DNA from: a virus
Virus record (IMG/VR): IMGVR_UViG_3300042691_012617
Span: 32,001-96,000 of that record
Length of the DNA stretch: 64,000 nucleotides
Strand: one strand, 5' to 3'
Numbering within the stretch: the stretch's first letter is position 1; each line of letters starts with the position of its first letter. The translations under genes and the position numbers were made by a program. Below the pieces are notes generated by a model. It saw only the letters and a program-made list of their open reading frames with translations. It was not told the origin of the DNA and ran no database searches. Positions 79 to 64,000 of this stretch are shown piece by piece.

Positions 79-1317
79 TTACCCCTGATCACCCTCGTTC
101 AGAATGGCATCGCTAGCGAACTTGAGATTGGCTTCGATGCGCTCCTTCTGATCGGGCGGGAACTTGCCCTGTTGCAGCAACTGGATGCTTGCAATACGCG
201 ATTCACGGTAGTGTCCCGTCCAAAACGCCGCGATTGCAAACTCATCCAAGAGTGCCCATTCATAGATTCCCTGACCGACGAAGAGGGCACCTTCGGGATA
301 TCGAATCTTTAGACCCTGCTTGGCGAAGCGATAGCCCTGATCGAACCGCGAGAATGCGCGGCAGAGACGAGCAGCAGCCCATAGGCTTTCGCCTCTCCAA
401 GGAGCAACCTGATATGCCTTGAAGTACAACTGAATGATGTTGTCAACGGGCTTCTCCAAGATCTCCATGATCCGACCCGCCTGATAGAGGCTGTAGAACA
501 CTTCCTCGTTCCAACCACCGAGATCAGCCCGCTTGAGGTACGCCTGAAGAGCGGGTTCCCATTGCTGCGAGTCGCGGTACGACTGAGCGAGGTAGAAGTG
601 GTAGCGATTGAAATCCTTCTCATCGACCTTGCCCGAAGCAAGTGCCGCTTCGAACTTCTCTGCGTCCTTCTTGTACTTCTCGGGGTCGGACGAACGGGCA
701 CCATCCTGAATCGGAGTGTTCATGAACCCACGGGCGAAGTCACGGGTGCCGATTGGATCATGGCAGTCCACATACTCATGGAGAACCCCACGGTAGTAGA
801 ACCGCTTCTTGTTGCTCGTCATCTGTGGACGGTGATATCGCGTCTGTCCGAAGTGGGCGAAGATGTTGTAGAGATCGGCGTTCAGCGTCTCCTTGAACTT
901 CATCGGATCGAAACCAGGCTCGTAAACAAGGATCTCGTCTGCATCGATCATGTATGCATAATCGGTATCCGTCTTCTGACAGAGTTCAAGAGCCTCGCTA
1001 CGGTTGTGACCGAAATCAACCCACGGACGCTCATGGAGTTCGCCCTTGATGCCATTACGATCAAAGAAGTCCTTGATCTTCTGCTGAGTGCCATCCGTCG
1101 AGCCTGTGTCAACAATCACCCAATGGTCGATGATTGGAAGGACCGAGGACAGGCACCGCTCAATGACATGAGCCTCGTTCTTGACAATCATGCAAAGGCT
1201 GATCGTCTTGTGCTTGTTTGGTGTGGGATTCGCCGTTGTTACTGCGGCGGTGGGGGTTGTCGAAACAACCGAAGTCGGTGCATCAATTGTCATGCTCTCG
1301 CTCATTGCAATCTCCAT
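79..1317 (-). CDS. Glycosyltransferase family 2 with C-terminal TPR-like repeats (start may be ATG 1305)
   Basis: ISLCMIVKNEAHVIERCL, IVDTGSTDGT, DFGHNRSEAL, DADE (DxD), YRGVLHE motifs; helical FYLAQSYRD/YSLYQAG repeats; GGAG before 1305; late promoter at 1339-1345. Confidence 0.9.
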   Translation of the reverse strand: MEIAMSESMTIDAPTSVVSTTPTAAVTTANPTPNKHKTISLCMIVKNEAHVIERCLSSVLPIIDHWVIVDTGSTDGTQQKIKDFFDRNGIKGELHERPWVDFGHNRSEALELCQKTDTDYAYMIDADEILVYEPGFDPMKFKETLNADLYNIFAHFGQTRYHRPQMTSNKKRFYYRGVLHEYVDCHDPIGTRDFARGFMNTPIQDGARSSDPEKYKKDAEKFEAALASGKVDEKDFNRYHFYLAQSYRDSQQWEPALQAYLKRADLGGWNEEVFYSLYQAGRIMEILEKPVDNIIQLYFKAYQVAPWRGESLWAAARLCRAFSRFDQGYRFAKQGLKIRYPEGALFVGQGIYEWALLDEFAIAAFWTGHYRESRIASIQLLQQGKFPPDQKERIEANLKFASDAILNEGDQG

Positions 1318-1338
1318 AATGAAGGTGGGTGTGTCAGG

Positions 1339-1345
1339 TATTTAG
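1339..1345 (-). promoter_or_regulatory. Late promoter CTAAATA for the glycosyltransferase
   Basis: Matches the recurring intergenic motif. Confidence 0.7.
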
Positions 1346-1373
1346 TCGCGGCTGGTTTGAACTATTAGTTGCG

Positions 1374-62610: not shown

Positions 62611-62628
62611 AACGATTACCTGTATCCC

Positions 62629-62635
62629 TATTTAG
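62629..62635 (-). promoter_or_regulatory. Late promoter CTAAATA overlapping a fibre stop codon
   Basis: Motif upstream of ATG 62610. Confidence 0.65.
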
Positions 62636-64000
62636 AAGTTCCCACCCGAGACAATACCGATGAAGCGTGTTGCAGTTACAGTTTGTGTAAATGTTGCCCC
62701 TGTACCCGAAAGATAGGGAATGTTCACATTGTCGGGCAATCCGATTGTGATGTTTGGGCAGGAGTTGGAAACTACCACTTCATTCGTAGTTCCTGTGATG
62801 ACGATGGCACCCGTACATCCATTGATATTTCCAACTACTGTAACATCACCTGTCACGCCGTTAAGGCTTTTGACTGTATTTTGTGCGATGTATGTGAAAG
62901 CGTCTCCGCTCTTGAGCAACTTTGTCTCGTTTGCCGTGACGGGAGCGGTAAGAACCTCAAACTCAATGTTCGTGGAGGACTTGGACTTTACGAACTGAGA
63001 AGACTTGCTGTTGAAGATCGTATCGTTGTCGAGAAGAATTCTCTCAGACTTCATCCGCTTGGTCTTGACCAAACCAGTTTCGCTTGCATCATAGAAAAGG
63101 ATGAAGTCATTTGTTGGGTCGAGCGTGGTTGCGGAGTTGAATGTCAGGTTGCCGACATCAAAATACAGGTAGGATAGAGAACCATCCGAGGAAGATGATG
63201 CGCCCAATCCTGTGAACTGCTTAGAAAATGATCCATTTTCTCCACCACCAACAAAACCCTGAGATCTAAGTTGCACCAAACCATATTGCGGTTTTACGAC
63301 AAAATGCGCGATGTCGAAGTAACCAACACCCGTAAGACCATGTTCGACATTTCCTTCACTATATCCCTCATAAGTGGATAGCGATGTACCTGCACCTGGT
63401 TGTCCTGATGGTATTCCGTTGTTAGTCACGATCACACTTGATGTGTGTCTTGCCGTGACCCTTTTTGTGTTCCCACTTACAGTAGAAACCCATATTGCTC
63501 CGCTTGTTGCACCATTCGCACCATCGGGAAGTATCGTATCTCCTGTTGCACCACCACCCGCAGAAGAGGCAATTGTGATCGTGTTTCCTGATCGGGTGAA
63601 TGTAATGTTGGTTCCTGCGGTGATATTCACTTTGCCCGTAAGTCCAACATCCGTACTGCCTAGACCAATTCCAGTAACACCGACATTATAAATGATCTTT
63701 CCAGTACCTACGGCAATTCCCGAACCCGCTTGAACCGTATCACCCGTGACTGCGTAGGATCCCGTGAGGACTAGATGTCCTGTGGAACCGATGCCAAAGA
63801 AACGGGGATCGAATGATGCAATTCCTGTCAGCGTGTACGACCCAAGTCTTGTTGTGATTCTGTTGTTGTCTTTGCCTTGTACTGCGCCACCATCACCTGT
63901 GAGCGAAACATTTCCCGTCAGACCATTGAATGATGTGACACCGATGTTGTACAGAGTTTCTGTATTTCCCGAAGTGACAATACCAATTCCCGAACCCGAA
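62632..64000 (-). CDS. Repeat-containing tail fibre, 5' end beyond the window
   Basis: Frame stays open upstream of the tracked GTG 63630 (..ASFDPRFFGIGSTGHLVLTG..GKIIYNVGVTG..); ends VSGGNF. Confidence 0.75.
   Translation of the reverse strand, partial: SGSGIGIVTSGNTETLYNIGVTSFNGLTGNVSLTGDGGAVQGKDNNRITTRLGSYTLTGIASFDPRFFGIGSTGHLVLTGSYAVTGDTVQAGSGIAVGTGKIIYNVGVTGIGLGSTDVGLTGKVNITAGTNITFTRSGNTITIASSAGGGATGDTILPDGANGATSGAIWVSTVSGNTKRVTARHTSSVIVTNNGIPSGQPGAGTSLSTYEGYSEGNVEHGLTGVGYFDIAHFVVKPQYGLVQLRSQGFVGGGENGSFSKQFTGLGASSSSDGSLSYLYFDVGNLTFNSATTLDPTNDFILFYDASETGLVKTKRMKSERILLDNDTIFNSKSSQFVKSKSSTNIEFEVLTAPVTANETKLLKSGDAFTYIAQNTVKSLNGVTGDVTVVGNINGCTGAIVITGTTNEVVVSNSCPNITIGLPDNVNIPYLSGTGATFTQTVTATRFIGIVSGGNF

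Follow-up and report, generated by a model that had tools for sequence, protein, structure and literature searches.

Which molecule is modified by a late glycosyltransferase (GT) of a T4-like phage, and is its acceptor marked by a short threonine motif that recurs in the structural proteins of the same phage? This question is raised by a 64,000-nt stretch of viral DNA, referred to here as the window, which covers bases 32001-96000 of the 168,426-bp IMG/VR record IMGVR_UViG_3300042691_012617 (estimated completeness 93%). The GT gene is located at 79..1317 on the minus strand and encodes 412 aa, and an initial annotation of the window had proposed that its product reads G-x-T-[G/A] as a Thr sequon and glycosylates the virion. 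The computational results presented here, obtained from sequences and predicted structures, lend support to this proposal, and none of four findings that would speak against it was obtained, i.e., a motif frequency explained by G/T composition, buried motifs, equal frequencies in orthologues from phages without the gene, or a GT of the kind acting on DNA or lipid. We lean towards the reading that the GT is a late protein O-glycosyltransferase whose collagen-type sequon has spread into exposed loops of the virion, giving the particle a glycan coat, and the narrower statement that it O-glycosylates G-x-T collagen-like fibres is regarded as likely.

The phage is an uncultured aquatic T4-like virus. 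Judged by gp6, it is closest among isolates to Pelagibacter phage HTVC008M and Methylophilales phage Melnitz, with 37-38% identity; cyanomyoviruses come next, and a near-identity DNA search of isolate phages found no close relative.

Excess of the motif in late structural proteins

The initial annotation had noticed by eye that G-x-T-[G/A] recurs in structural proteins of unrelated folds, and every example string quoted there is present. Shuffle counts, which it had named as the check, give an enrichment beyond G/T composition: 189 motifs were observed in all open reading frames (ORFs) of the genome against 64.3 expected (2.9x, Poisson P ~2e-36). As null models, 500 whole-protein shuffles and also shuffles inside 15-residue windows were used, and the control motifs [GA]T.G, G.S[GA], T.G[GA] and G..T[GA] gave observed/expected ratios of 0.87, 1.15, 0.93 and 0.70, respectively. 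The late head-tail-baseplate block, which is non-repetitive, has 55 motifs against 16.5 expected (3.3x, P ~7e-14) and the fibre block has 105 against 27.3 (3.9x). Proteins expected on the outside of the particle account for 52 against 12.7. The scarcity noted earlier in gp6, hub proteins and replication enzymes was confirmed, since interior or non-virion late proteins (gp6, hub proteins, tape measure, portal, and tube) have 4 against 4.5 (0.9x) and all other, non-structural ORFs have 23 against 19.3 (1.2x).

In an unbiased logo around Thr, the structural proteins favour G at -2 and +1 (z 9.1 and 9.8, respectively), L/V at -1, and a further G at +3; nothing comparable was found in the non-structural proteins, and around Ser there is a weak signal only. 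The refined motif is G-[L/A/S/V/I/T/Y]-T-[G/A], in which no residue other than Thr is favoured at position 3 and x is never D, E, R or H. The signal has three components: collagen-like (G-x-T)n runs, fibre repeat units, and sites scattered in unrelated proteins. Part of the fibre signal comes from the (G-x-T)n runs and from the repeat unit NIGVT(S/A)FNGLTG.V.LTGDG, while a second fibre repeat unit ends with GSTGHLVLTG (full unit FDPRFFGIGSTGHLVLTG). Both units, the first of about 20 residues, recur many times over at least four adjacent fibre genes, from 60217-64000 of the window on to 103386 of the genome, which suggests duplication or recombination among these genes.

It could be argued that a composition rich in G/T, internal repeats, collagen runs or a signal at the DNA level produce the excess artificially, because collagen runs are present in the fibres along with some 15 repeats of one unit, each adding a match, and because G/T/S-rich patches of gp8 and VrlC raise some of the controls. 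We consider this very improbable. The genome ratio is still 2.53x when collagen runs are masked, the excess of individual proteins persists under the 15-residue local shuffles, and the permuted motifs are not enriched. In a reading-frame control on the same genes, the ratio is 3.7x in frame and 1.0-1.6x in the other five frames; the excess is therefore a signal at the protein level, and a DNA-level cause was ruled out. A purely collagen or repeat origin was ruled out by the masking together with the non-repetitive late block, and GC content was ruled out by a GT-bearing T4-like contig, G001, which has a GC content of 36% and a ratio of 3.1x.

Position of the motif in individual virion proteins

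Candidate acceptors (all on the minus strand; counts are given as observed / expected) are found over most of the window. The small late protein p113 (1374..1715; PHROG 1084/3304), encoded directly upstream of the GT gene, is a candidate substrate with 3 / 0.2 motifs. Next come a collar-domain fibre of 1134 aa (2514..5918; Pfam Collar and Gp53-like_C; 7 / 3.0), a VrlC-like structural protein of 1645 aa (6129..11066; PHROG 358/877; 8 / 1.8), a gp8-like baseplate wedge protein (11079..13508; Pfam Phage-Gp8; 5 / 0.9), and a gp7-like baseplate wedge protein (13489..15714; Pfam Baseplate_wedge) with two motifs within the string GITGGGLTAAGYS. The inner baseplate and hub genes (gp6, gp25, gp5-like, and neighbours; 15721..25506) served as an internal negative control and have no enrichment, gp6 having 0 / 0.4. 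A 745-aa late protein of no known family (44241..46478), preceded by the heptamer CTAAATA, has 6 / 1.1. The fibre gene block (52007..64000) encodes proteins of 528, 950, 324, 312, 797 and 1491 aa, the last of which runs past the window end, and contains (G-x-T)n runs, NGLTG repeat units and scattered motifs; the 528-, 950- and 312-aa proteins have 12 / 2.8, 36 / 4.5 and 5 / 1.0, and another fibre has 4 / 1.0. Outside the window, the sheath has 7 / 0.9, the major capsid protein (MCP) 3 / 0.6, gp15 2 / 0.3, and two small proteins, p128 and p150, 4 / 0.5 and 2 / 0.3.

The scattered sites are partly found in similar short strings, such as GITAGGYT in gp15, the above string in gp7, and GITASGYTAAGN in the sheath. 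Where the placement could be judged, the motifs occupy variable insertions or loops; surface loops had been expected for a sequon. In orthologue alignments, all sheath motifs are in the variable middle region, which we take to be the outward-facing domains by analogy with T4 gp18, those of gp15 are in a C-terminal extension, and the non-conserved MCP motif is in a variable loop. For p128, the predicted structure is of moderate confidence (pLDDT 66.8) and resembles a jelly-roll/cupin-like sandwich with motif-bearing loops, structural matches to cupin and jelly-roll proteins being weak; three of its four motifs are in low-confidence loops between strands. The sites of the exterior proteins show positional turnover at a constant density.

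The proteins p128, p150, the 745-aa protein, and two others of 259 and 261 aa had no match in PHROGs or Pfam. p150 and p128 are paralogous small late proteins (36% identical, both ending with GTIILEF), encoded at 16977-17815 of the genome between the prohead protease and portal genes. Opposite the fibre genes, a 112-aa ORF on the plus strand (59424-59762) has no Gly and 14% Ala and looks like a spurious antisense frame, not a gene.

The glycosyltransferase and its late expression

The GT consists of a disordered segment (residues 1-37), a GT-A domain (about 38-202) with the DxD motif D125-A-D127, and an all-helical TPR-like domain (214-411), and it contains zero G-x-T-[GA] motifs itself. Pfam Glycos_transf_2 (PF00535) matches residues 40-130 with 43.7 bits against a cut-off of 23.3, the sequence matches in PDB are GmaR (8e-9), ThuS (1.5e-6) and SunS (4e-5), and D70, D125, D127, H180 and E181 are invariant over 38 homologues. 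The AF2 model (pLDDT 91.7) has an alternating strand/helix domain at 39-202 with pLDDT >90 and helices at 214-411. When the full-length model was searched with Foldseek, SunS/ThuS came first (E 2e-15, TM 0.58, ~390 aligned columns), followed by the wall-teichoic-acid enzymes RmlT, TarS and TarP (3e-7, TM ~0.3), and designed TPR proteins were also matched. The GT2 part of the GT2+TPR architecture given in the initial annotation was recovered by Pfam; for the TPR part, Pfam found none in the protein itself at E up to 0.01, and the evidence is the TPR-like domain of the fold and the Pfam TPR matches in the homologues P0118 and P0121. No transmembrane helix was found in the GT (highest 19-aa hydropathy window 1.37), and the protein thus combines an N-terminal GT-A domain and a C-terminal TPR-like helical repeat with no membrane anchor. 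Since the SunS equivalog TIGR04195 gives 33.3 bits against a cut-off of 350 and the neighbours are fibre and tail genes, the GT probably works like SunS-type enzymes and is not a member of them; no glycocin precursor gene was found near it. A complex prediction of GT residues 31-412 with p113 had a score of 0.00, which counts neither way.

The gene is located within the late structural module. In the order of minus-strand transcription, the window contains the inner baseplate/hub genes, gp6, gp7, gp8, the VrlC-like gene, the 1134-aa collar fibre, the 259-aa protein, p113 and the GT; past the window start, the GT is followed by a 1102-aa collar/collagen fibre, gp13, gp14, gp15, gp16, gp17, sheath, tube, portal and, further on, MCP. 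The GT had been placed after the structural block, but it is actually inside the late block, between p113 and the 1102-aa fibre, with gp13-gp23 beyond; this fibre, directly downstream of the GT, has a Pfam Collagen match. The late promoter that had been assigned to the GT was recovered as the late-promoter-type motif CTAAATA on the minus strand (1339..1345), 28 nt upstream of the start codon. This heptamer occurs at 40 sites genome-wide, 27 of which are at most 80 nt upstream of a same-strand start, and the genes preceded by it include MCP, tail tube, gp13, the 1102-aa fibre, the 745-aa protein and several fibres; other minus-strand copies in the window are, e.g., at 46512, 47075, 48365, 50363, 58831 and 62635. 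The T4 late-promoter form TATAAATA has only three copies in the genome. From these positions, CTAAATA is taken to be the late-promoter motif of the phage group.

As an alternative, the GT may target a non-protein acceptor, either host envelope polysaccharide or lipopolysaccharide (LPS) for superinfection exclusion or the phage DNA, with the motif excess unrelated to it. GTs of the fibre region in pelagimyophages and cyanophages have been read in the literature as LPS or DNA modifiers (PMC7029224; PMC12801897), the PHROG 13126 match of the present GT carries the label beta-1,4-glycosyltransferase, the genome has a sugar-nucleotide cluster with further GT2 genes, and the second-best fold matches are wall-teichoic-acid GTs. 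We consider this alternative quite improbable, because the E-value of SunS/ThuS is eight orders of magnitude better than that of the teichoic-acid enzymes and the TM-score about twice as high, the enzyme has a late promoter and a location inside the structural module, and the alternative leaves the G-x-T adjacency of the whole family and the co-variation of motif and gene, both described below, unexplained. Enzymes of the membrane-bound envelope-modifying type (GtrB/LPS) have membrane segments, whereas the present model is soluble. DNA glucosyltransferases of the T4 type are of GT-B type and accompany a hydroxymethylcytosine (hmC) pathway; the present enzyme has a GT-A fold, and no match to the ThyA/dCMP-hydroxymethylase family was found in the 93%-complete genome, so that no T4-type hmC pathway is seen. 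The kinship with SunS/ThuS-type peptide/protein GTs rather than with DNA or lipid GTs, claimed in the initial annotation, is therefore upheld by fold, sequence, lack of a transmembrane helix and lack of such a gene.

The sugar-nucleotide cluster is located at 118242-124246 of the genome, beyond the window end. Besides a 460-aa aminotransferase of the DegT type and a pair of NAD-dependent epimerase/dehydratases, it contains two more ORFs with a GT2 domain and a protein weakly resembling GT47. An amino-deoxy sugar might be provided by this cluster, which could also elongate a glycan.

T4-like phages with and without the gene

No GT homologue was found in HTVC008M, Melnitz, S-RSM4 and T4, and the genome-wide motif ratios of these phages are 1.05, 0.87, 1.07 and 1.20, respectively. 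In their sheath orthologues there are 0, 0, 3 and 0 motifs, as opposed to 7 (0.9 expected) in the present phage; gp15 has 2 motifs here and 0 in the GT-less orthologues, p113 has 3 (0.2 expected) here and 0 and 0 there, and the VrlC orthologues of GT-less phages have 5 / 2.8, 2 / 2.7 and 3 / 2.3. Since the GT-less relatives have no excess, the phage probably coats its particle with sugars. The 25 relatives of the clade found via gp15 (45-100% identity; at least 59% for full-length matches) all have a 3-7x excess, and the GT is kept at the same position in every sampled clade relative whose locus spans it; two clade loci were seeming exceptions due to a gene-calling error.

More distant viral loci were retrieved with a profile of the 38 GT homologues (A1). 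Among them, contigs G004 and G001 are T4-like; in five core proteins they are 43-51% identical to the present phage, a distance like that of the GT-less comparators. G004 (GT 39% identical) has 139 / 45.3 motifs (3.07; collagen-masked 2.41), with 4 / 0.7 in sheath, 6 / 1.0 in gp7 and 4 / 1.1 in gp8, and G001 (GT 42% identical) has 132 / 42.8 (3.09; collagen-masked 2.86), with 5 / 0.5 in sheath and 4 / 0.8 in capsid. As the initial annotation had anticipated, orthologues in GT-less phages are without excess (genome-wide ratios 0.87-1.20x) and the GT-bearing lineages share it (genome-wide 3.1x). In a concatenated tree of the five proteins, the phage groups with the GT-less S-RSM4/HTVC008M/Melnitz clade (support 0.84), apart from G004 and G001; because the GT-bearing lineages are not monophyletic on this weakly resolved tree, gene and motif co-vary over at least two events. 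A further contig, G002 (51% complete), is ambiguous, its control motifs being elevated to the same degree as G-x-T-[G/A].

ORFs of 620-736 aa that match the GT profile weakly and in part (E 7e-15 to 8e-8) were found in four of five contigs that were scored as GT-less and have G-x-T-rich fibres (the T4-like G006, G008, G009 and G010), and these ORFs possibly represent a more distant related enzyme.

The p113 family provides a natural experiment. Of 66 distant viral loci, 16 have a p113 homologue immediately downstream of the GT; in the present clade, the homologues are immediately upstream. The GT-linked ones are longer (129-169 aa) and have 1-6 motifs each, many of which are in an inserted loop of 20-40 residues, and the homologues of HTVC008M and Melnitz have neither the inserted loop nor motifs. 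When 80 further p113 loci were retrieved by a search seeded with a three-sequence alignment, the mean number of motifs was 2.83 with the GT adjacent (n=12) versus 0.27 without a GT within 6 kb (n=66). One conserved p113 loop has G-x-T-G in the GT-linked proteins and D/N/A-x-T-G in the GT-less ones.

The enzyme family in viruses and bacteria

A result that goes beyond the initial annotation is that, in viruses and bacteria alike, genes of the enzyme family are linked to those of G-x-T-rich proteins. In the 66 distant viral loci (GT 35-47% identical, GC 23-65%), the flanking ORFs have 1092 / 288 motifs (3.8x; controls 0.98 and 1.19), and 27 of the loci have a strongly enriched neighbour, which is usually (G-x-T)n collagen-like and often directly downstream. 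GT-less fibre-region loci, chosen as a conservative baseline, have such a neighbour in 7 of 68 (Fisher P 5e-5), and the collagen-masked ratio is 2.03 in the GT-bearing loci versus 1.14 in the GT-less fibre loci. In 80 bacterial loci of many phyla, the flanks have 2893 / 633 (4.6x; reverse motif 0.61), and a strongly enriched neighbour with (G-x-T)n collagen-like repeats is present in 38. Whole-genome pattern searches covered one genome each of Bradyrhizobium (9.3 Mb) and Streptomyces (10.3 Mb), and in both of them almost every (G-x-T)5+ match belongs to a single locus about 2 kb from the homologue. The adjacency known for SgtA and BclA3, an enzyme gene beside that of a G-x-T collagen-like protein, is therefore found here as well.

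The family is very large, with 3021 representatives at E <1e-30, and its members are often duplicated or fused in long bacterial proteins; many representatives are tandem or fused forms of 500-1900 aa. In the Bradyrhizobium genome (C1:3232549-3235752), two GT-A+TPR units are fused in one 1908-aa ORF beside a giant (G-x-T)n gene.

Long collagen runs are the strongest and most general association of the family, and the main rival explanation starts from them: the GT glycosylates (G-x-T)n fibres only, and the scattered sites in sheath, MCP, gp7, gp8, gp15, VrlC and p113 carry no sugar, being structural turns or brief stretches of collagen-like sequence that are common by chance in these lineages. 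The SgtA precedent, which is limited to collagen repeats, is in line with this, and so are the cultured Tunturiibacter phage Tunturi_5 and contig G003, which have the enzyme and no dispersed excess. We nevertheless consider this explanation unlikely. The masked excess is 2.5x in the present phage, 2.4x in G004, 2.9x in G001 and 2.0x in the distant GT-bearing loci, whereas genomes and fibre loci that lack the GT have 0.9-1.2x and 1.14x, respectively; the p113 loop sites follow the presence of the gene; the sites are restricted to exterior proteins and variable loops, with the positional turnover at constant density described above; and SgtA takes short single-Thr peptides too.

Proposed mechanism and its weighing

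According to the reading we favour, namely glycosylation of both the fibres and the dispersed sites, the GT-A (GT2) domain with its DxD metal/nucleotide-sugar site would catalyse the reaction and the TPR-like domain would presumably hold the acceptor polypeptide. A sugar would be moved from a nucleotide sugar to the Thr hydroxyl in G-[L/V/I/A/S/T/Y]-T-[G/A], a sequon that may be described as one collagen triplet plus the following Gly. The family would originally have acted on (G-x-T)n collagen-like repeats such as those of the neighbouring fibres, and the sequon would have been acquired in exposed loops and insertions in this phage and at least two other T4-like lineages, including the outer region of the sheath, the MCP loop, the gp15 tail, gp7, gp8, VrlC, p113 and the fibres. 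If the subunits are glycosylated before assembly, as we propose, the exterior ones would be modified beforehand and particles carrying a glycan coat would assemble pre-glycosylated. Such a coat may serve for shielding, stability or adhesion. In its broadest form, the proposal is that selection planted a collagen-derived sequon, G-(aliphatic/small)-T-(G/A), in exposed loops of nearly all exterior proteins in several lineages of abundant T4-like phages from aquatic habitats, that one late GT-A+TPR enzyme coats head, sheath, neck, baseplate and fibres, and that the family is a general Thr O-glycosyltransferase of G-x-T collagen-like proteins in bacteria and phages; we give this form an even chance of being right.

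Several points weigh against the favoured reading. Thr at the Y position stabilises bacterial collagen helices without sugar, and collagen runs alone therefore need no enzyme. Within 8-10 kb, an enriched neighbour is missing from about half of the GT-bearing loci. In Tunturi_5, whose enzyme is 37% identical to the present one, a single GPT/GAT collagen fibre encoded 4 kb from the GT holds 66 of 141 motifs, and G003 (6.3x) concentrates its motifs in collagen-like proteins; the excess of both is in collagen proteins only (collagen-masked 1.18), which means that the presence of the enzyme by itself does not imply dispersed sites. The GT-less Melnitz carries four motifs in MCP. Some control motifs are also raised in gp8 and VrlC, which indicates local G/T/S-rich patches, and p128, p150, p113 and the 745-aa protein are assumed to be part of the virion. 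The whole-genome comparison covers three GT-bearing and four GT-less T4-like lineages with a weakly resolved tree, and the support is entirely computational.

In the Tunturi_5 record (37023-39144), an annotated nucleotidyltransferase precedes the homologous enzyme, and it might activate the donor sugar.

If the favoured reading is true, a common and widespread phage gene family has a job other than the modification of host LPS or DNA routinely annotated for GTs of marine and freshwater myophages, i.e., sugar-coating of the particle, and the modified sites become readable from sequence via a four-residue sequon. This would provide a testable handle on particle stability, stickiness, resistance to grazing or enzymes, and host recognition of aquatic phages, a compact enzyme-plus-tag pair usable for protein glycosylation, and a substrate class (G-x-T collagen-like proteins) for thousands of uncharacterised bacterial GT2-TPR genes.

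Comparison with known systems

SunS/ThuS (PDB 7msn and 7msk) are the best full-length structural match, which covers both the GT-A and the helical TPR-like domain. They modify Cys (S-linkage) of a ribosomal peptide bacteriocin, whereas the predicted acceptor here is Thr in G-x-T-G. Among proteins of solved structure, GmaR of Listeria monocytogenes is nearest in sequence to the catalytic domain (E 8e-9), the N-terminal domain being compared. It is a cytoplasmic GT2 and flagellin O-GlcNAc transferase, which O-glycosylates exposed Ser/Thr of a protein later polymerising into an extracellular filament. Unlike the present GT, it acts on flagellin without a defined short sequon and doubles as an anti-repressor. 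Bacillus anthracis BclA and the Mimivirus fibres are Thr-rich G-x-T collagen-like regions or fibres with O-glycans partly of unusual amino-deoxy sugars from DegT-type aminotransferases. The present phage also encodes a DegT aminotransferase and two epimerase/dehydratases, but those systems belong to spores or eukaryotic viruses.

In mycobacteriophages, phage-encoded GTs modify virion proteins, resulting in a glycan shield (Freeman et al. 2023, as cited in PMC12619734 and PMC12801897). There, the glycans are at the C-termini of capsid and tail-tube subunits in siphoviruses of actinobacteria, whereas here internal G-x-T-[G/A] sites are present in many exterior proteins of T4-like myoviruses that infect aquatic bacteria. 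In the literature found, virion glycosylation is cited solely for mycobacteriophages, and our search found no paper in which this GT family is connected with a dispersed sequon or with collagen-like fibres of phages.

SgtA of C. difficile is a protein of 358 aa with a GT-A domain and C-terminal TPRs, encoded beside bclA3; it adds beta-O-GlcNAc to Thr of GPT collagen repeats in vitro using UDP-GlcNAc and Mn2+, and short single-Thr peptides are also accepted (PMC7157674). Compared by its published domain description, SgtA shares with the present GT the N-terminal GT-A and C-terminal TPR-like domains, solubility, a size of about 360-410 aa, and a gene location beside that of a G-x-T collagen protein. 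The differences are that the present enzyme is phage-encoded and has a late promoter, and that its predicted sequon is also dispersed in loops of globular virion proteins.

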